Shown: positions 32,267 to 48,595, counted from the first letter of the stretch. The stretch is DNA of 64,000 nucleotides from a virus (IMGVR_UViG_3300046323_000673:1-64000); one strand, 5' to 3'. Made by a program: numbers and translations. Notes: generated from the sequence alone by a model not told the origin.

Positions 32267-32296
32267 AAATCCAATTGGATCGATCCAATTGGATTT
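32267..32296. repeat. 30-bp nested palindrome, copy 9 (extends to 32263-32300)
   Basis: Exact; between convergent genes. Confidence 0.97.
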
Positions 32297-32307
32297 CACC
32301 CCGTTCA

Positions 32308-32862
32308 TCACCGCGAGCGTGGACGACGTCGCAACATGCGAGGGACGCGAATCGCTGAACGAAGAATCGACGCGAGTTCTTCACGGTCGAGTTTGCGTGC
32401 GTGTGCGAGTTCTTCTTCCAATCGAAAACAACGCTGAATCAACTCGTTGTATTCGGCGTTCAATGCATCGAACGAACCGAATTGTTTCAATTGTGATTCG
32501 AGCACGCGAACACGAGCATTCAGGTTTGCGCATTCGGTCGTCTTGGCATCGAGATCTGTTTGCTTGAACATCGTCTGCTCAACTGCCCATTGAAGGCACG
32601 CCGCTTCGTTCTCGGCAGTCTTGCGATCGAATGTGACTTCCGCAAGCTTGGCGTGGATCTGTTTCGCGCATGCCCATGTACACACGTCAAATGATGACTT
32701 ATTGAATCCATTTCTTACGAATTCGGATCGATATCCTGCACTGAAATGACGCCATTCGTCTTCGTCTGGGTTTGGTGGGTATGCATTGCGTCGCTTGTTT
32801 GGATTCGCTTCCTGTTTCCCGCACGCATCACAGATCATTACTGTGGTTGTTTCGCTGCTCAT
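32308..32862 (-). CDS. antisense insert: zinc-finger plus coiled-coil hypothetical protein
   Basis: CDACG...DVCTWAC then coiled coil; SD GAGG. Confidence 0.7.
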   Translation of the reverse strand: MSSETTTVMICDACGKQEANPNKRRNAYPPNPDEDEWRHFSAGYRSEFVRNGFNKSSFDVCTWACAKQIHAKLAEVTFDRKTAENEAACLQWAVEQTMFKQTDLDAKTTECANLNARVRVLESQLKQFGSFDALNAEYNELIQRCFRLEEELAHARKLDREELASILRSAIRVPRMLRRRPRSR

Positions 32863-32910
32863 TGATTGATCCTCGCTCTCGTTCCCATCATGCGATGATT
32901 GCGCCTGCCC

Positions 32911-33471
32911 ATGAAACCTCGAGCCCTACCCGCTGGTACCGCGGCACGAACAGTGCTCGCACGCATCGCCCCTGCCATCGACAACGCGCGACAAGTCGCA
33001 ACCGAGATCGGCGCGCGTCCGTATCAAGTCTTCCTCGTGTGGGGCGCGTGGGGTGGCAAGGAACGGGGCGAAGGAACGTTCGGGGAACTCGCACGGTTGC
33101 AGCTATTGCCAAACCCCAAGATCGACACTGTGCAATTCACGAACACGCCCTACAGCGCGGGGCAGTTGCCCGTGGGTGCATTGCGCGTGTCGGGTATTTC
33201 GTCGACGTATACGCAACCTGTTTTGCAGGGTAATCGACTTCCGAATGGGCATGAGTTCGACAAGCAAAACAGGCGTAACGACTTCTTCTACGAGATCACG
33301 CTCGATGATCGAACCCCGAGTGAAGACCCCGAACGTGCGCGTATGCGATTGCTCTCTGGACCCACGCTCATGCCCACGCGCGTATCGTGGGAGATGCAAC
33401 TTGAACGCTCGTCTGATGATCGTTCCAATCGGGAAGCACGCATTGATCGCGCGAATGGAAAGGGCTGCTGA
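32911..33471 (+). CDS. putative head-closure/neck protein
   Basis: Size and position in neck module. Confidence 0.55.
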   Translation: MKPRALPAGTAARTVLARIAPAIDNARQVATEIGARPYQVFLVWGAWGGKERGEGTFGELARLQLLPNPKIDTVQFTNTPYSAGQLPVGALRVSGISSTYTQPVLQGNRLPNGHEFDKQNRRNDFFYEITLDDRTPSEDPERARMRLLSGPTLMPTRVSWEMQLERSSDDRSNREARIDRANGKGC

Positions 33472-33977
33472 TGGCTGCTGAAATCACGTTGCAGGAAGCG
33501 GCGCAACGAACGGAAGAACTCAAAGAGAAGTGGCACAAGGCGGCTGTGCTTGGCTTGCAATCAGCAGCGGCAAGGGGCGTGCAGGACATCGTCACGCGCA
33601 TCATCCCATCACGCACGCCGCAACCCGTGGACCGGGGAGTCTATCGCTCGGGATGGCGGTTCTATACAGCTCCCGATGGTGCGGTGATTGATAACGCCGA
33701 ACCGCACGCCATCTTGATCGAAGACGGCGTGCGTGCGGGTAACGTTAAGATCGGGAAGAAGATGATCGACGCGCTTGCTGAGTGGGTACAGCGCAAGGGC
33801 ATTGTTAGTGGGGATGACGCACGTTCGGTTGCATGGGCAATCGCGAAGTCGATGCAGCGCCGGGGGATATTCAACAAGGGCAAGGGAATGGGGATACTTG
33901 CCGAACTGGTCGACAAGTATCTGCCCGGCTATGTCGAAGAAGAAGTTGCGCGGGAAGTCGAACGGGCGGGGTTCTAG
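33471..33977 (+). CDS. neck protein, HK97 gp10-like
   Basis: PVDRGVYRSGW...PHAILIEDG...LAEWVQRKG...AIAKSMQRRG. Confidence 0.7.
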   Translation: MAAEITLQEAAQRTEELKEKWHKAAVLGLQSAAARGVQDIVTRIIPSRTPQPVDRGVYRSGWRFYTAPDGAVIDNAEPHAILIEDGVRAGNVKIGKKMIDALAEWVQRKGIVSGDDARSVAWAIAKSMQRRGIFNKGKGMGILAELVDKYLPGYVEEEVAREVERAGF

Positions 33978-34096
33978 ATCGATTTACGTTGCGCCATTTT
34001 CAACGCATTCCGACGTAGTGCATCGAAATCGGCGATTAAGGCGAGTTCCCGAATGCACAGAAGTATCCGATAGAATTTGAGTTCGTCCTGATTCAT
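33974..34096 (-). CDS. possible 40-aa protein (not in ORF track)
   Basis: MNQDELKFYRILLCIRELALIADFDALRRNALKMAQRKSI fills the gap exactly. Confidence 0.35.
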   Translation of the reverse strand: MNQDELKFYRILLCIRELALIADFDALRRNALKMAQRKSI

Positions 34097-34105
34097 GTGG
34101 TGATT

Positions 34106-34330
34106 CTAGATCTTCTTGGCGAACCCGTATCGTTTGCCACGCTTTTCACCTTCCGCGTCGATTGCACCAAGCGCGGTGAGGTACGCAATCGCGGCGCTCC
34201 ATTCGGATGACGAGCATGAAACGTGAACAGCGATTTCGCCCTTGGTGAGTTTCTTGTCTTTCGACTTTTCGAGTGTGTTGACGATCTGTTGAGCGATTCG
34301 TTGGGTATTCGATGAGACTTCGGTAGCCAT
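34106..34330 (-). CDS. antisense insert: small winged-helix DNA-binding protein
   Basis: LTKGEIAVHV...WSAAIAYLTALGAIDAEGEKRGKRY; SD AAGGAG. Confidence 0.7.
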   Translation of the reverse strand: MATEVSSNTQRIAQQIVNTLEKSKDKKLTKGEIAVHVSCSSSEWSAAIAYLTALGAIDAEGEKRGKRYGFAKKI

Positions 34331-34360
34331 GGAATTGAACTCCTTTCGAGTCGGGATAGG

Positions 34361-34564
34361 TCATGCGACGTTTCTCGCGGCCCGTTGCGCGCGTTTCACT
34401 TCTTCCCGTCGTGATTGTGCCGCCTTCACTTGTGCGAGGTGCACGGCGCATCGCTTGTTTGGCTTCAACGCATCACGTTTGCAGTCGATGCATTTACCCA
34501 TGTTCATTTGCTTCTTCCGCCATGCGTCGCGGTCTTCGTCGAAGATGCTGATTTTATGGATCAT
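34361..34564 (-). CDS. antisense insert: small zinc-finger protein
   Basis: GKCIDC...RCAVHL; CATGAT-N6-ATG next to palindrome copy 10. Confidence 0.65.
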   Translation of the reverse strand: MIHKISIFDEDRDAWRKKQMNMGKCIDCKRDALKPNKRCAVHLAQVKAAQSRREEVKRAQRAARNVA

Positions 34565-34580
34565 GCCGTGATCATGCGTG

Positions 34581-34610
34581 AAATCCAATTGGATCGATCC
34601 AATTGGATTT
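34581..34610. repeat. 30-bp nested palindrome, copy 10
   Basis: Exact; between divergent genes. Confidence 0.97.
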
Positions 34611-34631: not shown

Positions 34632-35351
34632 ATGGCCGTTTTCGACGCGCTTAGGAAATACCTTGCGGGCGGGCTGTTCTTCGGCCGGGCAAACCCAAGG
34701 AACAAGCCCCGACCCCTTCCCTCGCACGATGCACGGTCGTACGCGCTCGCGAAGTTTGGCGACTTCCTCGCGGCGCTCGAATGGTCCCGTCCTGGTGACG
34801 TCGGCAAACCCGATGTTCCATATCGAATCGCACGCGAGGATATTTACGAGGAACAACCCGACGATCCCGCGCAATTGAACTTCCCAAGCATCGCGTTCCT
34901 TCCCGCGCGGGGCATGCACGATCAATACAACCTTGGTCCAAGCGACATTATCGACGAAAGCCGAGACCAGTTTGGGAAGGGCACCGTGCTGCTCTTGCAA
35001 GGGGAGTACATCGAACCGTTCATGATCGAGGTGTGGGGAAGTCACATCGCTGAACGCCGGTCGATTCTTGCCGGCATACAAGCGGTGATGCGAATGAACG
35101 AGCGTTCGAATGCGTTGCAGCTCCTGCTTCCCGAATACTTTGGTCGGGTCGCAAGCTTCAGTTTGATGGATTCGCAGAACATCGACGATCCCGACGTTGT
35201 TCGTGGACGCCGGCGGGGGCAAGTCGCGGTCGAACTGCGCGTACCCGAAGTTGTGCTTGTCGACGTCGTAACGATGCGTCCCTGCCTATGTGTTGAGGTC
35301 GTGGACAAGCTGCGTTCCGAACAATGCGGACAAGATGCCGACTCGACGTAG
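34632..35351 (+). CDS. putative tail terminator/completion protein
   Basis: FPSIAF motif; immediately upstream of sheath. Confidence 0.6.
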   Translation: MAVFDALRKYLAGGLFFGRANPRNKPRPLPSHDARSYALAKFGDFLAALEWSRPGDVGKPDVPYRIAREDIYEEQPDDPAQLNFPSIAFLPARGMHDQYNLGPSDIIDESRDQFGKGTVLLLQGEYIEPFMIEVWGSHIAERRSILAGIQAVMRMNERSNALQLLLPEYFGRVASFSLMDSQNIDDPDVVRGRRRGQVAVELRVPEVVLVDVVTMRPCLCVEVVDKLRSEQCGQDADST

Positions 35352-35378: not shown

Positions 35379-37598
35379 ATGGGTGCAGGCTTTTTACGCA
35401 GATTCATCGGGCGCCAACCTACAGTCGACGAGCTTCTCGCGATTGAAGGCGTTGTGCTCATTGACAAGGATCCACCGGCGGCGATCAACGGGGCAAACAC
35501 GGGTGTTGCCCTTGTCGTAGGTGAGTTCGAGGATGGTCCGTTCAATACGCCGCTAGAGATCCTTTCATCGAATGATCTCGCGACGACGTTCGGGCAATTC
35601 GGTTTCAACTATGACGGTTTGGCGGGGGGTAACCCTTGTGCTCGATCACGACTCGCGGACGGGGCGACATCCCCCGAGTATTGGAACGGCAACGGGTTCA
35701 TCGGGCTTGTGAACAAGAGGTTCGCGGGGCTCGTTCTCGTTCGCGTTGATACGAGCGTGGGTGAAGTTTCGTTCACAAGACTTGCGAGTCTATCCGGACG
35801 AACTGATTTCTCGTTCGCGCTTTCCGATGGTGCATCGCTCGATTTCGATATCGGCGCGGGTACAGTATCGGCGGTGTTTAACGGCGCGGTTGCGACGATT
35901 GCAAGCGCGGCGGGCACGTACCCAAGCACGTTCACCGGCGGGCAAACCCTGACCGTCGCAATCGAGGGAACGACCTACGTGATCACGTTCCTCGCGGCGG
36001 ACCAAACCCAAGCGCAGTGCATCGCGCGAATGAACGCGGCGGTTGGGTACACGGCATTCGTTTCGTTCAGCGCAACCGTGATCGATTTCAATGGTCGCAT
36101 TGAAGGCACCGATGGCGAGATCCAAGTGCTCGCGGTGAGCGGCGCACTCGTCACGACTGCAACCGGGTTTTCCGCGGGCGCTGCTGTAAACGGAACGGGC
36201 AACGTCCCGAACCTTGCAGCCATTTCAAGCACAGATGCCGACGCGGTAGTGAATGCGGCGGATGCAGACACCAACATCGACCGCGACGCGAACAACGCGA
36301 TTCGCATCGTGAATACGGGTACGCCTGGCACAGGCACGATCATCGTCGATAGTACGAGCACGGCACTCGCGTTTGGCTTCCCGCTCGACACGGAAGCAGA
36401 TGCCGCAGTGGGCATTGATGGGAGCATTCCCGCGGGCACACGTATTCGAACAGGTGCGGGCGTTGAATTCGTCACAATGACGACGACGGCAATCACCGCG
36501 GCAAACGCCGGCCCCTACACGATTCGCGTACGACACGCGCTCGACAATGGTGCAGGTGCATCACAACTCGTTTCGACGCTGAACGTTGTGCCTTTCCCGA
36601 TTGCGATCGGGGCATTCGCAGTGACGAACAATCTGCCTATCGGTGCGGCGAAAACGGAAGCACAACTTGACGCGCTGTACACGACCGCGATTCAAGGAAC
36701 GAAGTCGATCAAGGGCATCACGAAGAAAGTGAACATCATCGTGAGTGCGCGACAATCGAACACGATTCGTTCGGCGCTGAAGGTGAATCAGCTTGAGGCG
36801 TCCACGGAAGGCTGCTTCGGGCGTATCGCATGCATTCGTCCCCCACTTGGAATCACTCGAGCAACCGCGCGCAGCACGTCGGCACAACCCGGCGTCGGGG
36901 CGTATAGGAACCGGGGTGTGGTGTACTGTTACCCCGGCGTTCAAACCTACGTCCCGCAGATTGCAGCACGTGGCATCGCGGGCGGTGCGGGGTTCACCGC
37001 GGACGGGATCATCAACACGGGATTCGATACGTGGATGACCTCGATCCTTTCTCAACTCCCGCCGGAAGAAGATGCGGGGCAAGAAACCGGGTATTTGGCA
37101 GGCGTGCTTGATATCGAACGCAATGCCGATGTCGCTGATTTGAAGATCGAGGATTACATCGCGTTCAAGGCGTCGGGTATTGCCGCACCTCGCATCGATG
37201 ACGGCGTATGTATCGTGCAAAGTGCGGATACAAGTGTTGACCCGGCGGTTGACCCCGTGGGCGTTCCCATTGCCCGACAACGATTCGTGTATTACCTGCA
37301 AGACACGCTTGGTCCGCGTCTCAATACGTACGTGAAGAAGGGCAGCACGAACGAACGACGGGCGTTGGTCGTGGGCGAAGTCGACGGGTTCTTGTCGGGT
37401 TTGCTTAGCGAGGGACAACCGTCACTCGCGCGCATTCTTGGTTATGAAATCGACACAATTAGCGGCAACACGCCTGCACTTCTCGAACGAGGGATCTTTC
37501 GTATCATCGAACGTGTGAAGATGATCGCGCCGTTCCGAGCTATTGTGCTCGAATCAATAGTGGGTGAAACGGTTCAGATCGCCGAAACAGCGGCGTAA
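35379..37598 (+). CDS. contractile tail sheath protein
   Basis: GVVLID..PP...VGEFEDGPFNTP..I.S...FG N-terminus; IARQRFVYYL C-terminal sheath motif; 739 aa. Confidence 0.88.
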   Translation: MGAGFLRRFIGRQPTVDELLAIEGVVLIDKDPPAAINGANTGVALVVGEFEDGPFNTPLEILSSNDLATTFGQFGFNYDGLAGGNPCARSRLADGATSPEYWNGNGFIGLVNKRFAGLVLVRVDTSVGEVSFTRLASLSGRTDFSFALSDGASLDFDIGAGTVSAVFNGAVATIASAAGTYPSTFTGGQTLTVAIEGTTYVITFLAADQTQAQCIARMNAAVGYTAFVSFSATVIDFNGRIEGTDGEIQVLAVSGALVTTATGFSAGAAVNGTGNVPNLAAISSTDADAVVNAADADTNIDRDANNAIRIVNTGTPGTGTIIVDSTSTALAFGFPLDTEADAAVGIDGSIPAGTRIRTGAGVEFVTMTTTAITAANAGPYTIRVRHALDNGAGASQLVSTLNVVPFPIAIGAFAVTNNLPIGAAKTEAQLDALYTTAIQGTKSIKGITKKVNIIVSARQSNTIRSALKVNQLEASTEGCFGRIACIRPPLGITRATARSTSAQPGVGAYRNRGVVYCYPGVQTYVPQIAARGIAGGAGFTADGIINTGFDTWMTSILSQLPPEEDAGQETGYLAGVLDIERNADVADLKIEDYIAFKASGIAAPRIDDGVCIVQSADTSVDPAVDPVGVPIARQRFVYYLQDTLGPRLNTYVKKGSTNERRALVVGEVDGFLSGLLSEGQPSLARILGYEIDTISGNTPALLERGIFRIIERVKMIAPFRAIVLESIVGETVQIAETAA

Positions 37599-38081: not shown

Positions 38082-38111
38082 AAATCCAATTGGATCGATC
38101 CAATTGGATTT
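38082..38111. repeat. 30-bp nested palindrome, copy 11
   Basis: Exact; left flank is reverse complement of CGTCGAGTAACGTAGGGATTTG. Confidence 0.97.
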
Positions 38112-39164: not shown

Positions 39165-41144
39165 ATGGCGAAAACCACCGAAGTCAAAGTGAAGTTAAAA
39201 GTCGAGGACGGTGGTTCGTCCAGTGTCCTCGATCGAATCAAGAAGGGATTCTTCGGGGTCGAATCTGCTGAAAAGTTAGCCGAAAAATCGGCGAAAGATT
39301 TCGCCGAACAGTTCGTCGAGCAAAACAAAATCAAGGAACGAATCGATAAGGTCAAAGACTCGTTCCTTGATTTATCACGTAGCATTGCGGTATCTGCCAT
39401 CGAAGGGCAAAAAGCTGATAAGTCGATCGCTGGTTTGATCGCGATTGCACAGGGTTCGCAATGGTCCGCGGCGTATGAATCGGCGCAAGCGTTGAACGAT
39501 CAACTCGACGAAATCAGTGTGAAGGCGGGGCAAGCAGGCGATGACGTAGGAGCTGCATTCCAGGTCATGGCCGAAATCAGCGGCGCGACGGAAGGCGGCC
39601 TAGCGAAAGCGAAAGAGCAAACCGCGAGTCTTGCGACCATTGCCAATACGCTCGGGAAAAGCACGGCGGACATCGCGCGTGAATTCAGCTTCATGGGTGA
39701 AGGCGTCGTGAAGACCAAGGGGCAGCTTTTCCAGTTGCTTCAAACAACGGGAATCTTCGGGGACAAGACGAAAGATGCGTCGAATTATTGGGCAAGTTTG
39801 ACCGAAGAAAGCAGGCTTGAACAACTCTCGTCTGGGCTCGAAAAGGTCGCATCCAAGCTGAAGGATAGCGAGCCGGTGATCGGCGACTACCTCACGACGA
39901 TCGACAACTTGTTCGGTATGGCAAAAGAGAAGCTCGGGGAACCAATCATCAATTCGATGAAACCCGCACTTACCGACTTGATTGGACGATTGAAAGTCGC
40001 AATGCCCGCGATTGAAAAGTTCGGCATTGTCATGGGCAAAGAGATTAGTCATTGGGTCGATGACGCGGTGAAAGAGATTTCGGAGGGTTTCAAGTACATG
40101 GAAACCCACGCGGAAGAGATAAAGAACGCAATCGCAGAAGGGTACAAAACGGCGAAAGAAGTCGTGATGTTCATCCTCGATCACAAGGAAGAGATCGCGA
40201 TCGCGTTCGGTGCAAATGCAGTGTTGCCAGGACTTCGTGCGGGTGCAAGTGCCGCGGGTTCGCTCATTGATGCGAGTGCCAAGGGGATTGGACCATTGGC
40301 GGGCACGGGCGGGGGTATTGCAGCGGGTGCTGCAACAATGGTTGCGTTTGCCGCGGCGGTGGGTGCATTCGCATTGGTTGTCGATCAATGGGGCGAGTTG
40401 ATGGCGTCCACAGAAGGCGGCAAAAGCGAGGGGCAGCAAGACTTCGCGGCGTATCAACGGTCGTTTGAGCAACGTGCAGCAGCTCCCGATACGGGTGCAT
40501 GGGGCAAAGACGAAATGAAGGGGTTTGAGCAGCAGCGCGCAGCGTTCGTGCAGCTCGCGCAAGACCTGGGTGAAAACGCACGTGCGGCCGGGGAACTTGC
40601 TGATCGTGCATTCGCGGCGCACAAGGGTATGCGCGATATGGTTGGGCCCGTCGAAGAAGCGCAAAAGATGTTCGACAACTTCGCAAAAGCCCGTGCTGAA
40701 GGGATGATTCCCGATGAAGCGAGCATTGCGACGGCTGATTCATTGATCGGGCAAGTAGGTGCGAGCTTTACAAAAGCAATGGCGACGCACAACCAAGGGG
40801 CATCGCAATACATCGCGAACCTGCTTGCGAAAAGCGAGGGGTTGCAAGGTGCATTCCTCGCATCTGCTGATCTCACGAGTGAAGGGTTTGAAGCCCTCGC
40901 AAGCATGGTCGAAGGGCAATCGAAGGAGTTTGCTGATTTGCTTCGGGGAAGAGCAGGCGAAGGAAAGACCGCGCCGGCGACGCCTGCTGCACCCAAAGTG
41001 GTGATGACGGGCGGACAAACATTCCAAATCAAGCAGGACTTCCGCGATCAAGATCCCGACCGGGTTGCGATCATGTTCGAGCGGGATATTGGTCGGAGTA
41101 TTGAAAGGAAGTTGTCGGCGGGGTCGAACGTGTTTGGCGCCTAA
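39165..41144 (+). CDS. tape measure protein
   Basis: 659 aa helical, Ala/Glu/Lys-rich; VKVKLKVED start; position. Confidence 0.8.
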   Translation: MAKTTEVKVKLKVEDGGSSSVLDRIKKGFFGVESAEKLAEKSAKDFAEQFVEQNKIKERIDKVKDSFLDLSRSIAVSAIEGQKADKSIAGLIAIAQGSQWSAAYESAQALNDQLDEISVKAGQAGDDVGAAFQVMAEISGATEGGLAKAKEQTASLATIANTLGKSTADIAREFSFMGEGVVKTKGQLFQLLQTTGIFGDKTKDASNYWASLTEESRLEQLSSGLEKVASKLKDSEPVIGDYLTTIDNLFGMAKEKLGEPIINSMKPALTDLIGRLKVAMPAIEKFGIVMGKEISHWVDDAVKEISEGFKYMETHAEEIKNAIAEGYKTAKEVVMFILDHKEEIAIAFGANAVLPGLRAGASAAGSLIDASAKGIGPLAGTGGGIAAGAATMVAFAAAVGAFALVVDQWGELMASTEGGKSEGQQDFAAYQRSFEQRAAAPDTGAWGKDEMKGFEQQRAAFVQLAQDLGENARAAGELADRAFAAHKGMRDMVGPVEEAQKMFDNFAKARAEGMIPDEASIATADSLIGQVGASFTKAMATHNQGASQYIANLLAKSEGLQGAFLASADLTSEGFEALASMVEGQSKEFADLLRGRAGEGKTAPATPAAPKVVMTGGQTFQIKQDFRDQDPDRVAIMFERDIGRSIERKLSAGSNVFGA

Positions 41145-41344
41145 GAGTCAAACACGTCGCTTATTTTGAAAGCGTATCGCGAATTGACGACACGTTCATC
41201 TTCACGAACAAGCGCGCCGTGCCCATTTATGCAAGTTGCAGGCTCGCAACTTGTTTCATGAATACCCCTGCTTCCAGGTTCATACATAAGATCACGACGT
41301 GCTTTGTATCCGCACGTTTTGCAAACCAATGTGACGCGGGTCAT
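41141..41344 (-). CDS. antisense insert: small zinc-binding protein
   Basis: CKTCG...CINGHG; ATGA overlap. Confidence 0.6.
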   Translation of the reverse strand: MTRVTLVCKTCGYKARRDLMYEPGSRGIHETSCEPATCINGHGALVREDERVVNSRYAFKISDVFDS

Positions 41345-41697
41345 GACTGATGGGAACCGCGCGGGTCGTGTTGGCCTTCGGTGCCGAAGAAATCTTCCTG
41401 TACAAGTTCGTCCAGGAACTCATTGAATTGCTGGACGAACGTTTCCCGTTCGTCTTTCGATAATCCCAAGATCACGTCGAACAAGTACGCGGGATGTTTG
41501 ATGTTCGCAATTGATTGGTCAACGAACGTGCAACGCGACAAGTATTGTTGCAATGCGTTGGTCATCGACTGCTTCATTGCAAATCGTTCGTAGAGCAATG
41601 TGCTTGTAATGGGCGAATGTCTTTCCATTGCGAGAATGGCGACGAACACGCGGGCAAGGTTGGCGGTACTTGCGTACTTGAAATTGGCACGGGGCAT
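41341..41697 (-). CDS. antisense insert: hypothetical protein
   Basis: SD AGGAGG; C-terminal LDEL..EDFFGTEGQHDPRG. Confidence 0.7.
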   Translation of the reverse strand: MPRANFKYASTANLARVFVAILAMERHSPITSTLLYERFAMKQSMTNALQQYLSRCTFVDQSIANIKHPAYLFDVILGLSKDERETFVQQFNEFLDELVQEDFFGTEGQHDPRGSHQS

Positions 41698-41732
41698 GAG
41701 ATGAAACCTCCTGCCCTCGTCATGCCGCGCGT

Positions 41733-41945
41733 TCAGTGTCGTCGTTTGCTTGGCTTTCCTTTCCGACGATTGCGTGCAAGGTTTGCACGCTTCTCGCGAC
41801 GATTGCGAATGCGGGGTTGATTAGGTGATGGCTTATCAGGCGCGAAGTTTGTAACAACATGACCTTGCAACATTGCGTGCCGTTCGGCTTCTGCCATCGG
41901 GTCGAATTCATCAACGATAAACTTGGTGGGTGTGGTGTTATCCAT
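41733..41945 (-). CDS. antisense insert: small basic protein
   Basis: CATGAT-N7-ATG adjacent to palindrome copy 12; Arg/Lys-rich tail. Confidence 0.6.
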   Translation of the reverse strand: MDNTTPTKFIVDEFDPMAEAERHAMLQGHVVTNFAPDKPSPNQPRIRNRREKRANLARNRRKGKPSKRRH

Positions 41946-41961
41946 GTTCGACATCATGCAC

Positions 41962-41991
41962 AAATCCAATTGGATCGATCCAATTGGATTT
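41962..41991. repeat. 30-bp nested palindrome, copy 12
   Basis: Exact; between divergent genes. Confidence 0.97.
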
Positions 41992-42065: not shown

Positions 42066-42764
42066 ATGCAGCACATGCATTTCGATTGGACGATGATCAC
42101 GCCCGAAGAAGCGGGCGCGCTGGAAGAAGCAGCGGTGACAGCTCTTGATGCAGGCGAGTTTGGTTTGACCGAAATGCCCGCTGAACTCATGACGACGGGT
42201 GAAGAAGTTGTCGAGGAAGCCCTCGAAACGGTCGAAGACGAAAACGCCGAAAGCATCGAAGAACAGGCCGAAGAAGCAATCGAAGGGGAAGAATTGCACG
42301 CGGGCGAGATCGACCCGACCGTGCTAGGCGAGATCGCTTCTGCGTGCGCTGACAAGGCCGAAGAAGCCGCGACGAAAGCGGAAGAAGCTGCTGAACTCGC
42401 GGATGATTCCGAGCTTGAAGGCGTCGATCCCAAGGAAGCCAAGACAGCAGCGGAAGATGCACGTGAAGCCGCTGATGCAGCTCGTGAAGCAGCCGATGAA
42501 GCTGAGAAAGCAGTCGCGGATGAAGATTATGGGAAGGCTCTTGAGCTTTACATGACGGCTGCCGAAGAAGCGGCGACGGCGGAAGAAGCGTGCACCGTTG
42601 CGTGTGCAGCCGCAAAGATGAACCAACAACCGCCTGTTGCAGCAGCACCGAGTGGCGACAAGGGTGCAGCAGCGAAAGCCGCTCCTACGCCCCCTGCAAC
42701 GCCCGCAAAGTCCAAGCCTGCAAAGGGCATGGCGGGTTGGGCCGATCGCGTACTTGCAGCCTAG
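42066..42764 (+). CDS. highly acidic Ala/Glu-rich protein
   Basis: 232 aa, SD AGGAGG. Confidence 0.75.
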   Translation: MQHMHFDWTMITPEEAGALEEAAVTALDAGEFGLTEMPAELMTTGEEVVEEALETVEDENAESIEEQAEEAIEGEELHAGEIDPTVLGEIASACADKAEEAATKAEEAAELADDSELEGVDPKEAKTAAEDAREAADAAREAADEAEKAVADEDYGKALELYMTAAEEAATAEEACTVACAAAKMNQQPPVAAAPSGDKGAAAKAAPTPPATPAKSKPAKGMAGWADRVLAA

Positions 42765-43069
42765 CTTCGGTGTCTGCGTTCCAAAGCATCGTGAAAGCGT
42801 CGTTTCGCTTCACGATGCTTTGCATCTGCTTCATCGGCTTCGCGACGTAGCTTGTCGATATCAATGGGAACAACGTTCATTTCGATGAACTTCTGAACAT
42901 CCTCGTTCAGTTTGCCAGTATCGTCAAACAAGCGAGCGATCAAACTTTCAGCACGTAATCCCAGAATGTCAGACGTGTTTGACCTGAGTTCGACAGAATG
43001 AAGTTCCTGTCTGATGCCGAGTTCCGAATTGATGCCTGTGATTTTGAACGTGATATCGATTCTTTGCAT
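42761..43069 (-). CDS. antisense insert: hypothetical protein
   Basis: 102 aa; CATGAT-N6-ATG adjacent to palindrome copy 13. Confidence 0.65.
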   Translation of the reverse strand: MQRIDITFKITGINSELGIRQELHSVELRSNTSDILGLRAESLIARLFDDTGKLNEDVQKFIEMNVVPIDIDKLRREADEADAKHREAKRRFHDALERRHRS

Positions 43070-43089: not shown

Positions 43090-43119
43090 AAATCCAATTG
43101 GATCAACCCAATTGGATCT
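43090..43119. repeat. 30-bp nested palindrome, copy 13 (3 mismatches)
   Basis: AAATCCAATTGGATCAACCCAATTGGATCT. Confidence 0.9.
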
Positions 43120-43138: not shown

Positions 43139-44341
43139 GTGAGCAGCATCGTCATCGAAGAACTCGAGGGGCAGAAGCGCACTTTAACCTTGAACGGCCC
43201 GGCATTGCCCCTTCGCGGCGCAACATGGGGCGGCGAGATGCGCCTCGTGACTGCGTTCCCACCAGGGCGGGGCGGTGAAGCAACGCAGCAGGTTCTAGGC
43301 ATCACGGAAGCCCCTAGCGAATGGGAGGGCACGTGGAACACGACGCGCATGGTTGCAGCTCCGTCAGTTCTTCGTTCGTCAGGGCAGAACCAAGGCATCA
43401 CACGCGCGTTCACGCTCATGACGGTGTTCGAGGAAATCATCCGCGCCGGTTCTCTCTTGCGCGTTACGTGGGCAACGGAGAACCGAAAGCTCGAGCGCGA
43501 GGGTCGGGTTGGGAGTTTCAAGTTTCCCATCGACCGCGAAGACGATATTCGGTGGAACGCGTCGTTCGTTTGGACATCACGTGGTTCGGGCAATTCGGTC
43601 ACGCCCGTCGCGCAAGCTGAAGAAGATATCGAAGCGTCACTGCGCGCAATCAATGGCACCTTGGCGGATATCCAAAGCGTGATCGTTGGTTCGCCCGTGC
43701 AGAGCATCACGCCAACCACACCGAACGGCGCATCGTTTCTCACGCTTGGGCAGCTCGAACAAATCGCGAGTGCACCCCGCAACTTCGCCGACCAAATCGG
43801 AAACACGGTTGTGTTTCTGCAATCAAATGTTTCACGCGCGATCGGCGTGGTCGAAACAATACGGGCACAACCGTCGCAGGTTGCGGAAATTGCATCGACG
43901 ACATCGCAACAAGTGCAAACCGAAATGCTCGATATTCGCAAACGACTAGGGCGCATTCCCCCCGAGACGTTGGTTGAGCCGGGTTCGTCCGTTTCAACAG
44001 TTGCGCGCACGTCAGCATATTTCGCGAGCATCGGGGGCAAGACGAACAAGACGATTCAGCAAACGATCGCGGTGCAGAACGCGGCACGAAAGAACGTGCG
44101 GGCGGGGGATGCGCGTAGGGGTCAAGATCGCGCCGATCCATCGAACGTGATCGAAACGATATTTGCACGCGCGGGCGATACGTTCGCGGGGTTGTCGATG
44201 AAGTATTACGGGTCGGCTGATTTGGCGGCGCAACTCGCGCGGGCGAATGGGTTTCCCGCGTATCAAGTCGCGCCCCCGGTGGGAAAGCGGCTCATCATCC
44301 CCGAATTCACAAGCTCGGATGGTCCGCAGAAATCGAGCTAG
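43139..44341 (+). CDS. tail tube initiator/baseplate protein with C-terminal LysM-like domain
   Basis: RAGDTFAGLSMKYYGSADLAAQLARANG...GKRLIIP; follows tape measure. Confidence 0.75.
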   Translation: MSSIVIEELEGQKRTLTLNGPALPLRGATWGGEMRLVTAFPPGRGGEATQQVLGITEAPSEWEGTWNTTRMVAAPSVLRSSGQNQGITRAFTLMTVFEEIIRAGSLLRVTWATENRKLEREGRVGSFKFPIDREDDIRWNASFVWTSRGSGNSVTPVAQAEEDIEASLRAINGTLADIQSVIVGSPVQSITPTTPNGASFLTLGQLEQIASAPRNFADQIGNTVVFLQSNVSRAIGVVETIRAQPSQVAEIASTTSQQVQTEMLDIRKRLGRIPPETLVEPGSSVSTVARTSAYFASIGGKTNKTIQQTIAVQNAARKNVRAGDARRGQDRADPSNVIETIFARAGDTFAGLSMKYYGSADLAAQLARANGFPAYQVAPPVGKRLIIPEFTSSDGPQKSS

Positions 44342-44595
44342 TTCGAATTGGAATCAAGCAACGCAAGTTCGGCACGCATTGCAATCACATCGGCTTCGAT
44401 ATCTTTGATCGCCGATTTCAATGCGGTGCGCTTTGCTTCATTGATTTCTTGTGCACCGATTCGGCTCCCACGTGCATGCCAAACGTCAGTGCCCTTTTCA
44501 TTCGATATGCCAATCGGTTTGGTCGACTTGCCTTCCCAATACCAGATATCGAATTTTGGATTGATTGAACGATGGTTCCACATGCTCACCTTCAT
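44338..44595 (-). CDS. antisense insert: hypothetical protein (start may be 44583)
   Basis: 85 aa, begins next to palindrome copy 14. Confidence 0.65.
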   Translation of the reverse strand: MKVSMWNHRSINPKFDIWYWEGKSTKPIGISNEKGTDVWHARGSRIGAQEINEAKRTALKSAIKDIEADVIAMRAELALLDSNSN

Positions 44596-44604
44596 GCTGC
44601 ACCC

Positions 44605-44634
44605 AAATCCAATTGGATCGATCTAATTGGATTT
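44605..44634. repeat. 30-bp nested palindrome, copy 14 (1 mismatch)
   Basis: AAATCCAATTGGATCGATCTAATTGGATTT. Confidence 0.95.
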
Positions 44635-44653
44635 TGCCGTGTAACATAGGGAC

Positions 44654-46369
44654 ATGCCCGTTCGTGAGCAGCCCCGACAAAGCTACACCCCCCGCGCACG
44701 CCTCGAACTCATCATCCGTTTGGAAGACTTCGGGGACAAGGCGAACCCTGTCCCGCCTTCCCCGGTGATGCCTCCTCACTTACGCAGCGGGAAGAAGAAG
44801 GGCGGCACGAACGATGACAAGCTGCGTATCGAGCGCGAGGGCGATCGTTTGGTCCTGCGTTCACCCACCGCGGGCGATAACAAGGGCCCCCCGCAACAAC
44901 AGATCCGTAGCAGCGACAACCGCACGTTTCGACTCGACGGGCTTGTTCCATTGCGCGCAACTGTGAACCGCAACGGGCCACGCATGGCCGATACGCTTTC
45001 CCTCTCCGTCGACTTCGCAAGCTTGCCACTCGACCCGCGCGTGATTCGAAGCATCGCCGTGCAATTGTGGATCGGATGCATCACGCCCGAACAGCTTGCG
45101 GAAGAATCTCAGGGCAAACGAAAAACACCCTGTCCGGATACGTTCACCGATTCATTCGGACGAACGAGAAGCAACCTGCGATTCCAAGGATACGTCGATG
45201 ACTTCGAATGCACATTGAACGACGGCGCTCCTGAAGTGAACCTTGAATGCACCGACAACACGCGCATCCTGATTGATCAAGACGCGCCAGTGAAACTCAC
45301 GGTATCGGCTGATAAACCCCTCGACGAAGCAGTCGCCGACTACCTCTCGAACTTCCCGCAATTCGTGGGCCTTAGCGTTGAGTACAGGCCGGGGGGTGTG
45401 GCTGTTCCGAGCTTGGGTACTGCCCTTGCTAAAACCGCGTTTAAGCCAAAGCTAGGGCCTCCCCCGGCGGGCGGCGGCGCGGGTGGGAAAATGACGGTAT
45501 GGGATTACCTGACCGACATCGCGGGTTCGGTGGGCTTGCTTGTTCGGTTCGAGAATACGACCGTGATTCTGCAACGCCCTCGCACGTTCTACGCGGGGCG
45601 GGGACGTGCACGCCCTGATGATCCATTTCGTGGACGCATCTTGCCCACGGGAAGGCAGATTGATTCACGCCTGCTTGTGTATGGGCGCAACGTGGACGAA
45701 CTCGGGTTCAAACGTAAGTTTTCCCGGAACATCAGTACGAACGTGGAAGTGCGCTGTTATTCGCCCCGATTGGGCAAAACGTTGGTTGCTCGATACCCGG
45801 TTGGAAAATCGGATAGGCAAAACAAGCCTGTGCCCGGCGACAAGCAAGATACGTCGTGGAAGGTCGTCACGGTGTACGGCATTGAAGACGAACCCACGTT
45901 ACGCGTCGTTGCACAAGGCGTGTACGAGCAATTAGGCAGGGCTGAACTCACTGGCAAAGTCGTCACGAAGAACCTTGGCAGCTTTGGTGGAAGCAATAGC
46001 GATCCCGATTTACTCGATGTGCAAGCGGGTGATTCGGTCGTGATCGAAGTGCAGCGGGATGATCCGGCACTCACGGCAATGGGCGGGCAGGGCGGAAGCG
46101 GGAACGCGCAAGCATTTCTCGAACGGTTGGGATACCCGAGCGATTTTGCAACGGCGTATCAAAACGCGGTGACGAACATCGGATTACCGACGACGTTTCG
46201 TGTTCGTACCACGGCGATTGATTGGGATTTCGAGCAAGGTGTGACGCTCGATTACGAGGTGGTCAATTACGTGGAAGTGCGCGCGTCGAAGGAATTACCG
46301 GAAGGGGAAGAGATTCCCGATGTGGACCCCGCCGATCAACCGGATAGGGTCGCGGTTGAGAGCGAGTGA
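44654..46369 (+). CDS. baseplate hub protein (gpD/gp27-like)
   Basis: RFQGYVDD, LECTDNTRILID, TVWDYLTDIA, LVYGRNV; position before spike. Confidence 0.75.
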   Translation: MPVREQPRQSYTPRARLELIIRLEDFGDKANPVPPSPVMPPHLRSGKKKGGTNDDKLRIEREGDRLVLRSPTAGDNKGPPQQQIRSSDNRTFRLDGLVPLRATVNRNGPRMADTLSLSVDFASLPLDPRVIRSIAVQLWIGCITPEQLAEESQGKRKTPCPDTFTDSFGRTRSNLRFQGYVDDFECTLNDGAPEVNLECTDNTRILIDQDAPVKLTVSADKPLDEAVADYLSNFPQFVGLSVEYRPGGVAVPSLGTALAKTAFKPKLGPPPAGGGAGGKMTVWDYLTDIAGSVGLLVRFENTTVILQRPRTFYAGRGRARPDDPFRGRILPTGRQIDSRLLVYGRNVDELGFKRKFSRNISTNVEVRCYSPRLGKTLVARYPVGKSDRQNKPVPGDKQDTSWKVVTVYGIEDEPTLRVVAQGVYEQLGRAELTGKVVTKNLGSFGGSNSDPDLLDVQAGDSVVIEVQRDDPALTAMGGQGGSGNAQAFLERLGYPSDFATAYQNAVTNIGLPTTFRVRTTAIDWDFEQGVTLDYEVVNYVEVRASKELPEGEEIPDVDPADQPDRVAVESE

Positions 46370-46395
46370 TTTACTGTGATGATTGTCGTTTGTCC

Positions 46396-46590
46396 TTAAC
46401 GCAACACGATCTTTTTCTTTTGTGCGCCGGTAAATGGATTCACGACGAAGATCTCTTTATATACTCCAGGAAAGAACGCGTTGATAAACTCAAAACGTGT
46501 ACATTGCAATCTGACAATTTCTCCTGGTTTTGAATTGAGTAAGTTAAAACAATCACGTGATAGCTTTCCATTCGTAGAATCTTTAATCAC
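46396..46590 (-). CDS. antisense insert: small AT-rich hypothetical protein
   Basis: 64 aa in visibly AT-richer DNA left of palindrome copy 15. Confidence 0.55.
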   Translation of the reverse strand: MIKDSTNGKLSRDCFNLLNSKPGEIVRLQCTRFEFINAFFPGVYKEIFVVNPFTGAQKKKIVLR

Positions 46591-46648
46591 GGTTTGTCTC
46601 TTTCCTGTAATGGGTGGGTAGTATGCATGAATTTTTCATGCAGCACCC

Positions 46649-46678
46649 AAATCCAATCGGATCGATCCAATTGGATTT
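46649..46678. repeat. 30-bp nested palindrome, copy 15 (1 mismatch)
   Basis: AAATCCAATCGGATCGATCCAATTGGATTT. Confidence 0.95.
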
Positions 46679-46698
46679 CACCGTGATACAGGTAGGGC

Positions 46699-47730
46699 AT
46701 GCCCCCCCGACGACGACCACGCGCACGCCCGATGAACCTTCCCGATCTCGCAAACGCGATGAAGGGACCGGGCAACGACACGCGGCAATGGGTATCGTTT
46801 GGCCTGGTTGACGAGGTGCCCGTCGACTTCGATGTTGACCACGGCCCGCTCATATCAGTCATCTTGAAACCATCCGAAGTCGAGGTGGTTTGCCGAGTTG
46901 CGATGCAGGTAGGAGGCAATGGGGAGGGCGAGTATTACCCGTTCGTCGAAGGCGATGAAGTCATCGTGCTTGTCCCCGGCGGCAACGAACGAGGCGGATG
47001 CGTCATCGTCGGACGATTGCCCAACCAACGCACGCCATTCCCCCAAGGAAGCGTCGCGGGACAAGACCCATCGACGAATGCATTCGGGTTCCGCCGGACG
47101 AAAGCACCGTTCATCAGTGAAGCGGACGGGCCAATCCTTCAGCGACAAGCCAAGAGCGGCGCGTTCATTTCACTTGATGAAGCCGGTACGGCGACGATTG
47201 CGAATGGCGACAAGAGCGCGATGCAATTGTCGTCAGACGCGCTCACAATTCAATCGGGTGACGGCAACTCGATTGTGCAGCTCGACATCACGGGTGGACG
47301 CGCAACCGTGCAAAGTGGTTCGGCGGTGCTCACCCTCGCAAGTGCGACGGCTGTACCCGCGACAAGCTCGATCGTGACACCCAACGTGCTGCAATTCTCG
47401 ACGGCAGGGGCTCCCCCGGCGGAACACGTCATCACGACAGAAGCGGTCGTGAATCTTGTATCGGGCATCTTGAACACGTTGGGTGTTGCATTGACCGCAC
47501 TTGGCGCAACGCCGTTGACGGGTGCGGTACTTGGCGCGTTACTCGAAGATCCAGCGTTCTCGATTGCGTTAGCAGCGGCGATCCCAGTGATTGCACAACG
47601 GCAACAGAACAGCCTTGTTGCGCTCGCATTGGTTGCCGCGTTTAGCAATCCAACGGCGAAACCCCCGCCGGTGCCAGGTCAGGGACAGACGTCACCGGGA
47701 ATAGGCTGTACGGGGCTCTTGGCGGGGTAG
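46699..47730 (+). CDS. baseplate central spike (gpV/gp5 OB-fold)
   Basis: GNGEGEYYPFVEGDEVIVLVPGG...IVGRL OB-fold motif followed by beta-strand repeats. Confidence 0.8.
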   Translation: MPPRRRPRARPMNLPDLANAMKGPGNDTRQWVSFGLVDEVPVDFDVDHGPLISVILKPSEVEVVCRVAMQVGGNGEGEYYPFVEGDEVIVLVPGGNERGGCVIVGRLPNQRTPFPQGSVAGQDPSTNAFGFRRTKAPFISEADGPILQRQAKSGAFISLDEAGTATIANGDKSAMQLSSDALTIQSGDGNSIVQLDITGGRATVQSGSAVLTLASATAVPATSSIVTPNVLQFSTAGAPPAEHVITTEAVVNLVSGILNTLGVALTALGATPLTGAVLGALLEDPAFSIALAAAIPVIAQRQQNSLVALALVAAFSNPTAKPPPVPGQGQTSPGIGCTGLLAG

Positions 47731-47948
47731 GAACGAACGACTTTCCACGTGGGATCATTCGTCGCTTTGCGAAGCCAATTGCGTACGTAAATCGCGACCG
47801 ATTTCTTGCGATAAACCTGCCCGTCTTTGCGATGCTTGCTCCATTGATAACCACGCGCTGTTTCTAACGTGTATTGTCCTTTTCCGTTTTTAATGCGGAA
47901 CTTGGGCTTCTTATCCTTCATAACGTCATATTTGATCGCGCTGCTCAT
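47679..47948 (-). CDS. antisense insert: small basic protein
   Basis: MSSAIKYDVMKDKKPKFRIKNGKGQY...; CATGAT-N7-ATG upstream; 3' end overlaps spike gene. Confidence 0.5.
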   Translation of the reverse strand: MSSAIKYDVMKDKKPKFRIKNGKGQYTLETARGYQWSKHRKDGQVYRKKSVAIYVRNWLRKATNDPTWKVVRSYPAKSPVQPIPGDVCP

Positions 47949-47958
47949 ATCTGCGATC

Positions 47959-48276
47959 ATGGCACGCATGGGTCGTTCACCTTCACCCGATGCAGCACCC
48001 CCCGTTGAACAAGCAGCAGCAGCCGCAAACGCATCGTTTCTGCCATCACCGACAGGGCTTGAACTGTGCGGGTTCGCCTTGCCTGCAATCCCGGCGTTCC
48101 CTGGATTGCCCGCACTTCCGAGTCTCGACACGTTGTTTGCTTTCCCGCCCGCGTTCAGCTTCCCGATTCCGATGGTGTGCGGGTTGGCGGATAGTTTGGC
48201 GGGGAGCGTTGGGTATGGCGGGGGACGTACGCCGTCGCGGGTGGAAGCGATTGATCACGAATTCGATGGGGCGTGA
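47959..48276 (+). CDS. Pro-rich hypothetical protein
   Basis: Ala/Pro-rich ORF after spike. Confidence 0.55.
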   Translation: MARMGRSPSPDAAPPVEQAAAAANASFLPSPTGLELCGFALPAIPAFPGLPALPSLDTLFAFPPAFSFPIPMVCGLADSLAGSVGYGGGRTPSRVEAIDHEFDGA

Positions 48277-48277
48277 T

Positions 48278-48532
48278 TCACAAGTCGATGCAATCGGCGA
48301 CGCTAAAGCTACGTTCCGATTTCAATTGAGCTTTCAATCGTTCGACTTCTGCTTTCAAGGCATCACGTTCCATTGCCAATTCTACGATAACGCCTGGATA
48401 CACGTAGCCTTGGTATCCGTTAGGAATCAATTCAGGATGCACACAATCGGTCCGATAAGTCTTCAAAACATCAGCATCGATCGTCATTTGCATAGGAACA
48501 CCAAGTAAAGTTCCTGCCCATACAATTTTCAT
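48278..48532 (-). CDS. antisense insert: hypothetical protein
   Basis: SD GAGGT; ERDALKAEVERLKAQL coiled coil; next to palindrome copy 16. Confidence 0.65.
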   Translation of the reverse strand: MKIVWAGTLLGVPMQMTIDADVLKTYRTDCVHPELIPNGYQGYVYPGVIVELAMERDALKAEVERLKAQLKSERSFSVADCIDL

Positions 48533-48565
48533 GAAATCACCTCTTGTTCGCTTCATGCCACGACG

Positions 48566-48595
48566 AAATCCAATTGGATCGATCCAATTGGATTT
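48566..48595. repeat. 30-bp nested palindrome, copy 16
   Basis: Exact; between divergent genes. Confidence 0.97.

Follow-up and report, generated by a model that had tools for sequence, protein, structure and literature searches.

A repeated 30-nt palindrome, the likely core of a bidirectional promoter/operator module, beside antisense accessory genes in the virion operon of a myovirus-type phage

In the DNA of a virus known from metagenomes (IMGVR_UViG_3300046323_000673:1-64000; this whole stretch of 64,000 nucleotides (nt) is referred to as the window), the plus-strand operon for the head, tail and baseplate proteins is interrupted at eight junctions by small minus-strand open reading frames (ORFs), and most of these units start beside a palindrome. 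The original prediction, which concerned positions 32267–48595, suggested that the palindrome may be either a docking or exchange point or a bidirectional promoter that lets a cassette insert without polar effects, in an integron-like cassette system. Our analysis favors the latter idea: the palindrome is probably the core of a bidirectional promoter/operator module, beside which antisense accessory genes (morons) would be exchanged by homologous recombination, and we put the probability of this explanation at roughly 60%. A recombination site is not what we favor. The eight minus-strand units, at 32308–32862, 33974–34564, 41141–41945, 42761–43069, 44338–44595, 46396–46590, 47679–47948 and 48278–48532, were all found as described, and comprise 12 ORFs in all. 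The tally of palindromes was also correct: one copy lies at the 5′ end of each of six units (copies 34581, 41962, 43090, 44605, 46649 and 48566), one lies at the 3′ end of a unit (copy 32267), and the unit at 47679–47948 has none. The higher A+T content of the inserts was likewise verified, since all 11 antisense ORFs tested have 37–52% G+C, as compared with 54–58% in five control genes and 55.3% in the genome.

A single 30-nt perfect palindrome, AAATCCAATTGGATCGATCCAATTGGATTT, underlies all the palindromes of the region, and it consists of two 12-bp palindromes, ATCCAATTGGAT, in tandem. The window contains 19 matches with three or fewer mismatches, while 0.00 are expected from 100 shuffles, and the whole 83,860-bp genome contains 23 copies, 16 of which are identical across all 30 nt. 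According to their context, the 23 copies are divided into 12 at tandem junctions of plus-strand genes, eight at divergent junctions, one at a convergent junction and two inside called genes; the 12 tandem copies have no insert alongside. The copies are located 2–60 nt past a stop codon and mostly 19–80 nt ahead of the next start. Perfect copies in the region are those at 32267–32296, between the stop of 31847–32254 (+) and the 3′ end of 32308–32862 (−), where the arms extend to 19 nt; at 34581–34610, 41962–41991 and 48566–48595, in the divergent junctions upstream of 34632–35351 (+), 42066–42764 (+) and 48653–49456 (+), respectively; and at 38082–38111, between two plus-strand genes with no antisense ORF, where a TAACGT hexamer faces left at offset 7. 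The copies at 44605–44634 and 46649–46678, both in divergent junctions, have one mismatch each, and that at 43090–43119 has three. The other 11 copies in the window start at 522 (522–551, a tandem junction of plus-strand genes), 6870, 8522, 13440, 17340, 22477, 27119, 29571, 51454, 58347 and 59374. The exact 30-mer found no match in IMG/VR, nor in 185,579 GTDB reference genomes.

Short-read Logan contigs from four freshwater runs stop at the palindrome or are cross-joined to the flanks of other copies; for example, a loose end at 32295 runs on into the flank of copy 64587. Two such cross-joints were recorded, and the shorter side had only 21 letters. Rather than to recombination, we attribute these contig ends and cross-joins to the assembly, with 31-mers, of a repeat of 30 nt. 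The repeat (32266–32297 and the other copies) fragments and chimerizes the assemblies of these phages.

Two features around the palindrome point to promoters. One is the occurrence of hexamers resembling a −10 element at a fixed distance from its edges. The pattern CATGA or TAACR begins at offset 5–10 on 15 of the 46 flanks, against 0.5 expected from its genome-wide frequency, although the pattern was picked after the flanks had been viewed, so that the p-value is only indicative. In all 15 hexamer-bearing flanks, the distance from the palindrome edge is 7 or 8 nt. On 13 of them, the start codon of an ORF of at least 40 amino acids (aa) follows 6–24 nt past the hexamer. This distance is 6–8 nt on the left of copies 17340, 43090 and 44605 and on the right of 44605, and 6–7 nt, when read by eye, on the left of 34581 and 41962; it is 11–12 nt, with an AGGGAG-like stretch, at 522, 22477, 27119 and 69451; and it is 16–24 nt, in some cases with a Shine-Dalgarno-like motif, on the right of 8522 and 74193 and on the left of 48566, 58347 and 59374. 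Near-variants of the hexamer (CAACAT, GATACA, TACCTT and CATGCT) occur on several further flanks. Copy 44605 provides an example in which both sides are occupied: on the minus strand, CATGAA (44591–44596) is 8 nt from the palindrome and 7 nt ahead of the second ATG of 44338–44595, and on the plus strand, TAACAT (44642–44647) is 7 nt from the palindrome and 6 nt ahead of the ATG of 44654–46369. With the hexamer taken as a −10 element, the palindrome would cover approximately −20 to −50, and its center would fall near −35 of both outward promoters.

Another feature is the preference for divergent junctions. The palindrome is present at 8 of the 12 divergent junctions, as compared with 12 of the 73 tandem junctions (Fisher p = 7e-4, odds ratio 10), and two of the four palindrome-free divergent junctions depend on doubtful ORF calls. 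This excess fits a promoter module, because a divergent junction must hold two promoters. The suggestion of a bidirectional promoter thus gains support at the level of sequence from both features. A promoter-like hexamer was found at all eight antisense units, including the two units without a palindrome at the 5′ end, which carry CATGAT 7 nt (47679–47948) and 25 nt (32308–32862) before the ATG.

A scan for the sigma-70 consensus in 31–50 kb gave four sites, against 9.8 expected, and none of them was at a palindrome. Elsewhere in the genome, three near-consensus sigma-70-type promoters were noticed at 6900–6970, 58377–58450 and 59404–59480, 40–50 nt downstream of the copies 6870, 58347 and 59374. 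They consist of TTGACT or TTGACA, 17 nt, and CATATT or TATATA, and have an AT-rich upstream stretch in common. They are likely to be early promoters, of a class distinct from the palindrome-adjacent ones.

In the explanation that we favor, the palindrome would be the shared core of the phage's own promoter/operator module, and it would probably be bound by a dimer of dimers of a predicted phage-encoded DNA-binding protein, because it is made of two tandem 12-bp palindromic half-sites. Beyond one or both edges, at a fixed 7–8 bp, there would be a −10-like hexamer, TAACRT-like toward most plus-strand genes and CATGAW toward the antisense genes; the start codon would follow 6–25 nt past the hexamer, so that many genes may be leaderless or nearly so. 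A single bound factor could then switch both outward promoters. The small minus-strand ORFs are considered to be lineage-specific morons, each with its own CATGAW promoter-like element and directly abutting the stop codon of a conserved virion gene. Since an antisense insert breaks a co-directional operon, the next structural gene needs a promoter of its own, which the same module would give. Gene turnover would occur through ordinary phage recombination between co-infecting relatives, and the conserved module (~50–60 bp, ~20 per genome) would serve as a frequent, not exclusive, joint, as with the promoter-early stem-loops (PeSLs) of T4-type phages. Homologous and illegitimate recombination is probably the simplest account of the exchange, because the genome encodes a UvsX-like recombinase.

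Conservation supports at least five of the antisense ORFs as real genes. The gene at 32308–32862 (−) encodes 184 aa, with a zinc-ribbon-like N-terminus with four cysteines and a coiled coil; it is intact in the related contig L030 at 80% nt identity, with a third-position bias. Nine homologue clusters (43–100% identity) were found for it, or eight when the window's own fragment, cluster P0040 (100% identical over 68% of the query), is excluded, and the alignment of the homologues has 47 invariant columns, the four cysteines among them. Neither the gene alone nor this alignment found a relative in IMG/VR. The Cys-rich 67-aa gene at 34361–34564 (−), which has CATGAT, 6 nt and ATG and is 4 nt from the palindrome, is intact in L025 at 92.6% nt identity. 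The 118-aa gene at 41341–41697 (−), with a conserved C-terminal motif, has five homologue clusters besides itself (42–85% identity). The 70-aa gene with an Arg-rich tail at 41733–41945 (−), which has CATGAT, 7 nt and ATG and is 3 nt from the palindrome, has intact counterparts in L028 and L035 (82.6% nt identity), and the coiled-coil-like 102-aa gene at 42761–43069 (−), which has CATGAT, 6 nt and ATG, is intact in L035 at 88.3%. In the four genes compared at the nucleotide level, the substitutions fall at third positions in 57 of 99 (32308–32862), 11 of 25 (34361–34564), 17 of 33 (41733–41945) and 18 of 36 cases (42761–43069), the gaps are multiples of three, and the frames are intact at 80–93% identity. 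Their non-synonymous/synonymous ratio is much above that of the neighboring structural genes.

The remaining seven ORFs, all on the minus strand, are as follows. The units 33974–34564 and 41141–41945 are small operons of three ORFs each; the former also contains a distal 40-aa ORF (33974–34096), whose stop overlaps that of the plus-strand gene in CTAG, and a 74-aa ORF (34106–34330) with weak winged-helix-like matches below the Pfam cut-offs, and the latter also contains a zinc-ribbon-like 67-aa ORF (41141–41344). The ORF at 44338–44595 (85 aa, or 81 aa from the second ATG) is an ORFan; a search against 1.84 billion representatives returned only itself and three repeat proteins. The 64-aa ORF at 46396–46590 is weak (GTG start, 37% G+C, coding score 2.9); ahead of it is a mini-ORF of 13 codons, itself 6 nt past CATGAA. 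The 89-aa ORF at 47679–47948, with CATGAT, 7 nt and ATG, overlaps the 3′ end of 46732–47730 by 52 nt. The 84-aa ORF at 48278–48532 has CATGAA 8 nt from the palindrome and a 19-nt leader with the Shine-Dalgarno-like AGAGGTGA. No known family or function was found for the antisense ORFs in Pfam, PHROG and NCBIfam, and the ESM Atlas gave no function-naming match for 32308–32862 and 41341–41697 at 0.9 or TM 0.5. At four of the eight slots, the stop of the plus-strand gene and the antisense stop overlap in one CTAG or CTAA (33974–33977, 41141–41144, 42761–42764 and 44338–44341), and the allele of L037 in the last slot, described below, does likewise. This may reflect either extreme packing or some junction rule. 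An IS5-like YTAR target at these junctions was considered and rejected, because no matching repeat was found at the other end of the inserts.

The turnover of these genes can be followed in the close relatives, which are 16 short metagenome contigs bearing the exact 30-mer, 84–96% identical to the phage genome. A clear case is the slot of 44338–44595, which holds three unrelated alleles, encoding 85 aa in the window, 155 aa in L037 and 160 aa in L033. They diverge directly past the stop of 43139–44341 and reconverge ~15 nt left of the palindrome at a common CATGAA, the hexamer at 44591–44596 described above, which is kept in all three alleles; nothing is shared further left. The L037 allele matches phrog_374 'HNH endonuclease' (E 4.4e-10, residues 2–89), in the non-catalytic part of the profile (positions 191–274 of 617), and the L033 allele contains half of the serine-integrase 'Recombinase' domain (PF07508, 22.3 bits vs a cut-off of 21.1; phrog_95, E 3.5e-12). 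In another slot, L028 and L035 carry 21 nt instead of 41141–41344 and 41341–41697; the breakpoints of this indel (41144–41730) are two stop codons, 232 nt from the palindrome. The expectation that gene content changes precisely at the palindrome was thus borne out to within ~15 nt in the former slot and failed in the latter. At 42761–43069, 200 nt in L028 replace both the gene and the palindrome and encode an unrelated 62-aa antisense ORF, preceded by CATGAA and 6 nt ahead of the ATG, with no palindrome, and L035 retains the gene with a perfect palindrome where the window copy (43090) has three mismatches. An insert seen at 32262/3 in the comparison with the close relatives lies 4 nt from the palindrome. 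The breakpoints are found at stop codons or within the shared promoter flank, not at the center or the edge of the palindrome.

Small plus-strand genes are also gained or lost beside palindromes elsewhere in the genome. To the right of palindrome 17340, close relatives have two small plus-strand genes of 94 and 89–93 aa (L027 1319–1888; L038). The window has only a 13-codon remnant there (17385–17441), whose first seven codons match the relatives' first gene and which looks like a deletion scar. In L027, the stretch from the terminase stop to the palindrome is also longer, by 485 nt. In L031, 59524–60138 (615 nt, two small plus-strand genes) is replaced by 306 unrelated nt, 120 nt downstream of palindrome 59374. 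L023 and L032 have ~150 extra nt at 14048–14073, within the 398-aa gene 13462–14658, which may be a variable repeat or domain.

The distant relatives, 21 IMG/VR loci retrieved with the 739-aa protein of 35379–37598 (42–56% identity), provide the view on a longer scale. All 18 plus-strand genes of 29776–50325 match 4–21 of these loci by tblastn, and none of the 11 antisense ORFs searched does. Each distant lineage has a repeated perfect palindrome of its own, whose sequence is private to the lineage. In four fully fetched relatives, 18, 24 and 18 copies and, in the fourth, ~31 copies of a palindrome with one mismatch were counted, and eight different palindrome sequences are found upon one conserved virion and replication backbone. 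All five complete distant relatives have such a palindrome, with between 17 or 18 and ~31 copies each. A lineage-wide palindrome with a private sequence in each member therefore suggests a co-evolving phage-encoded binding protein. In the relative G003, when read by eye, TANNNT or CATGAT comes no more than 45 nt after the palindrome at 7 of the 18 copies, with 6–7 nt between this element and an ATG, which would be the same leaderless-type layout as in the studied phage. At the places of the slots of 33974–34564, 44338–44595 and 46396–46590, nine distant relatives mostly have junctions of −6 to 59 nt without a palindrome. The exceptions are L016, with a palindrome and no insert at such a junction, and L018, with inserts of which one has a palindrome and two do not. 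In L017, the slot of 32255–32952 holds a lipoprotein-like ORF (LAALCAGC; 7952–8365, +) just after the palindrome of L017 itself; a minus-strand 185-aa ORF at the position of 32308–32862 there is unrelated to that gene, and the plus-strand ORF is the better reading. Accessory genes and palindromes would thus tend to arrive together at otherwise tight junctions, in either orientation.

Several points weigh against a promoter/operator module, besides the choice of the hexamer pattern after inspection. On the DNA side, 11 of the 23 copies, including 51454, 64587, 32267 and 29571, have neither CATGA nor TAACR at offset 5–10 on either side; several of these 11, namely copies 13440, 34581, 41962, 46649 and 82422, carry near-variants, read by eye. 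Two copies are inside called genes, and no recognizable −35 was found, the hexamer at that position being TCGATC. The complementarity of the flanks beyond the 30 nt is mildly enriched (eight copies with at least three extra pairs vs 2.7 in shuffles), a possible trace of selection for hairpin or cruciform formation. On the protein side, no regulator was found among ~50 phage proteins in Pfam, PHROG and NCBIfam, including no repressor-like helix-turn-helix family. The gene 22531–23091, which is missing in G002, was considered as the palindrome binder and dropped, because G002 has a near-palindromic motif of its own. Among the relatives, the spacing from the palindrome to the −10-like element or the ATG varies, and 8 of 18, 16 of 24 and 5 of 18 copies in three relatives fall within called genes, a count made with a gene caller that is crude at high G+C. 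The contigs of the close relatives were recovered via the palindrome, so that indels were to some extent bound to appear near it, and exchange of multiple alleles at the module was seen in one slot only.

A further possibility, which we hold tentatively and regard as rather unlikely, gives the private palindrome a second role: it would be an operator and, at the same time, a portable homology where UvsX/SbcCD-type machinery starts exchange, possibly after breakage of a hairpin or cruciform, so that it would serve as a 'barcode' of the species. If so, accessory genes with the right module could plug in at any of ~20 junctions, facing either way and causing no polar effects, and only phages with a common barcode would exchange genes. 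In function, such an arrangement would amount to a recombinase-free counterpart of an integron.

It is unlikely that the palindrome acts instead as an RNA or DNA hairpin, namely as a bidirectional terminator or attenuator, an RNase III-type site, or a stabilizer of 5′ or 3′ ends. The five copies folded all gave stable RNA structures (−18 to −27 kcal/mol, z −4.2 to −6.3, none of 200 shuffles as good), AAA and TTT flank the stem, most copies are just past a stop codon, the sole convergent junction (32267) suits a two-way terminator, and the mild flank extension noted above points the same way; PeSL stem-loops do terminate (PMC2839356). Nevertheless, eight copies are between divergent starts, where neither transcript should include the palindrome. 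There is no free U-tract, since the TTT is paired in the A+T-rich stem and the next base is C, T or G, and a terminator scan of 31–50 kb listed no copy of the palindrome. The 16 identical copies show no compensatory changes, although an RNA stem would tolerate them, and no Rfam family reached the gathering threshold in the whole window. A purely RNA role is less likely because of the missing U-tract, the eight divergent sites, the lack of an Rfam match, and copies that are identical instead of compensatory. Covariation of the flanks was dropped as evidence for a hairpin: it is weak in the studied phage and absent in three relatives.

More doubtful is the possibility that the inserts are selfish genes of intronless homing, that is, free-standing homing endonucleases and their degenerate remains, to which the palindrome would be incidental. 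The free-standing homing genes of T4-type phages are located between conserved genes, are AT-rich and vary between close relatives, and the present inserts share all three properties; the L037 allele, moreover, has the match to phrog_374. Against this, the match covers the non-catalytic part of the profile, the genome has no match to an HNH domain of Pfam, no nuclease family was found among the 10 antisense ORFs searched, and most of these ORFs, at 40–118 aa, are too small.

An integron-like or other site-specific cassette system, with the palindrome as an attC-like site or as the target of an HUH or tyrosine recombinase, is very improbable. The arguments in its favor are that the palindrome abuts the 5′ end of six of the eight inserts, that the alleles of the three-allele slot have a boundary ~15 nt from it, that one of these alleles (L033) has the partial 'Recombinase' domain, and that an IS1-like transposase gene is present at 53722–54819. 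As to the enzymes, the search of the 83.9-kb genome for a recombinase or an HUH nuclease, which the original prediction called for, gave no match to Phage_integrase (PF00589), Resolvase or Y1_Tnp in this 91%-complete sequence, with the PF00589 controls positive in 14 of 14 cases and those for the other two models positive as well. The L033 protein has no catalytic resolvase domain, and the IS1-like gene is not linked to the palindrome. As to the sites, 12 of the 23 copies are insert-free, the breakpoints lie ~15 nt off or at stop codons 232 nt away, and the antisense allele of L028, as well as the units 32308–32862 and 47679–47948 with CATGAT at the 5′ end, have no palindrome there. These off-palindrome breakpoints and palindrome-free allele and units are therefore, in part, the kind of observation that the original prediction had itself named as contrary to its cassette system. 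The inserts are also scattered over eight junctions in 17 kb, not arrayed, and have promoter-like elements of their own, while the near-identical perfect palindromes, mostly at the 5′ end of the inserts, are unlike attC. In integrons, the tyrosine recombinase IntI, encoded beside the array, acts on promoterless, co-oriented cassettes served by the common Pc promoter, and attC, at the 3′ end of each cassette, is degenerate with extrahelical bases. The likeness is confined to small promoter-adjacent genes by a palindromic site with a content variable among relatives; the phage has no match to an IntI-type recombinase, no array and no common Pc promoter, and its palindrome is perfect and invariant, so that the comparison is not supported for any defining feature tested.

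The IS1-family-like DDE transposase gene (53722–54819, +) encodes 365 aa, and its N-terminal 146 residues match NF033558 (E 4.7e-15, 56 bits, under the 100-bit cut-off), with weak matches to rve and DDE_Tnp_IS1. Four distant relatives lack it, its surroundings showed no terminal inverted repeats, and a phmmer search of the protein against PDB sequences found nothing.

There is an equally small chance that the palindrome is a parS-like or methylation-gated site of a phage ParB-family protein and a Dam-like methylase, with a role in partition, condensation or replication: its center is GATCGATC, the 675-aa protein of 4819–6846 (+) has a ParB/Spo0J N-terminal domain (TIGR00180, 107 bits vs a cut-off of 58), and palindromes 6870 and 8522 flank the ParB gene and the methylase gene 7649–8491 (−; Dam-like N6-adenine methyltransferase, phrog_56, E 1e-60), but the ParB-like protein is unmatched in all five palindrome-bearing relatives, four of which are at least 90% complete, the search for ParA yielded only a 12.9-bit P-loop match, to the DnaB-like gene, the 638 GATC sites of the genome give no sign of avoidance outside the palindrome (observed/expected 0.92), and the palindromes of five of the eight relative lineages lack a GATC center, three (ACGGATGATCGATCATCCGT and those of L018 and L021) having it. 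KorB-type ParB proteins regulate many operators; as a conserved binder of the palindrome, the ParB-family protein was rejected because it had no match in the five relatives.

The record to which the window belongs is a single contig of 83,860 bp, of which the window is the first 64 kb, and its completeness is 91% according to CheckV. The related metagenome contig L026 spans the record ends, joining genome positions 83855 and 6 through 133 nt. As L026 bridges the end and the start, the record is essentially whole, and it appears to be a nearly complete genome that is circularly permuted or was circularly assembled. The gene layout, taken from PHROG matches, is of the myovirus type, with the terminase at 15340–17277, the portal at 23674–25776, the major head protein at 29776–31161, the neck/tail-completion protein at 33471–33977 and the baseplate wedge proteins at 49456–51442; the conserved 739-aa tail-module protein is at 35379–37598. 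The replication set includes helicases, a primase, a DNA polymerase, the UvsX-like recombinase and an SbcCD-like pair (78357–81603 of the genome). ARAGORN detected no tRNA or tmRNA in the whole window. No similar phage was found among 50,697 GenBank phages by megablast and tblastn, and the runs containing the phage DNA are freshwater and sediment metagenomes, with no RNA run among them. The host is perhaps a member of Actinomycetota; this weak hint comes from the leaderless-type starts, the 60–68% G+C of the relatives and one homologue, 42% identical, that carries the label of a Dermatophilaceae metagenome-assembled genome.

Among known genetic elements, the antisense genes resemble morons in that they are extra genes between conserved late genes, are absent from relatives, deviate in base composition and have a promoter-like element. 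A classical moron has its own promoter and terminator, and usually one or two are found per module. The present genes differ in occupying eight junctions within 17 kb, all in antisense, and no terminator was seen with them.

For the repeated element itself, the closest comparisons are with elements of four phage groups. The PeSLs of T4-type phages (Arbiol et al. 2010, PMC2839356; Comeau et al. 2014, PMC4122927) are, as described there, composite motifs of a promoter and a stem-loop, present tens of times per genome directly upstream of small ORFans, as the palindrome is at six of the eight antisense units; indels and replacements between close relatives are jointed in the motif, through homologous recombination and without a dedicated recombinase. 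According to the same accounts, PeSLs have full sigma-70 −35 and −10 elements and variable stem-loops in five arrangements, and are co-directional and mostly in hyperplastic regions, whereas the palindrome of the studied phage is a single perfect one of 30 bp, invariant, accompanied only by −10-like hexamers that point in one or both directions, and spread through the core replication and virion modules, with ORFans that lie in antisense. For PeSLs, activity as promoter and as terminator and the formation of mini-circles have been demonstrated, whereas the promoter activity of the present module is a prediction.

In Cluster O mycobacteriophages, each genome has over 30 copies of a 17-bp dyad repeat (Cresawn et al. 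2015, PMC4351075). Like the palindrome, it is an invariant, group-specific inverted repeat with many copies in short gaps, a presumed dimeric regulator and some flanked indels. Its sequence is unrelated, with 7 + 3 + 7 bp and a variable center, and a third of the sites are within genes. Its authors doubted a transcriptional role, most sites being far from promoters, whereas the palindrome here is at a fixed distance from −10-like hexamers and starts. The stoperators of Cluster A mycobacteriophages (PMC9283540, PMC6550527) likewise combine one short many-copy site with one phage protein, and the divergence of their specificity, as related in these sources, parallels the private palindromes. They are asymmetric, oriented with transcription and bound by a monomeric immunity repressor that blocks elongation; in the studied phage, the site is perfectly palindromic, and neither a repressor nor an integrase nor any other sign of lysogeny was detected. 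Cluster K mycobacteriophages have start-associated sequences (SAS) and such sequences with extended inverted repeats (ESAS) (Pope et al. 2011, PMC3203893). These elements are a few bases upstream of the starts of a subset of genes, half of them with inverted repeats, and the half-site consensus varies by subcluster, which is similar to the present case. Unlike the palindrome, the SAS is an asymmetric 13-mer including the ribosome-binding site, and the ESAS has imperfect repeats with variable spacers, which keep to one orientation and lie in that half of the genome which is non-structural.

Regulatory motifs that recur along a genome and also serve as joints of recombination are thus already known from T4-type phages and actinobacteriophages, and the present phage is an unusually tidy case of known phage gene shuffling, not a new integron-like system or a new category. 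What it adds is the series of private palindromes across the lineage, together with one clear multi-allele slot. Its practical use would be modest: the module is a candidate portable bidirectional promoter/operator and a marker that breaks short-read assemblies. The three-allele slot shows present-day exchange of accessory genes within one lake and sediment population, and the private palindromes of the relatives are a ready comparative series for the co-evolution of a site and its factor. If the module works as proposed, a lytic phage would add accessory genes within its most constrained operon without polar damage: a symmetric operator-promoter would start the structural genes anew and, facing the other way, also drive the inserted gene.

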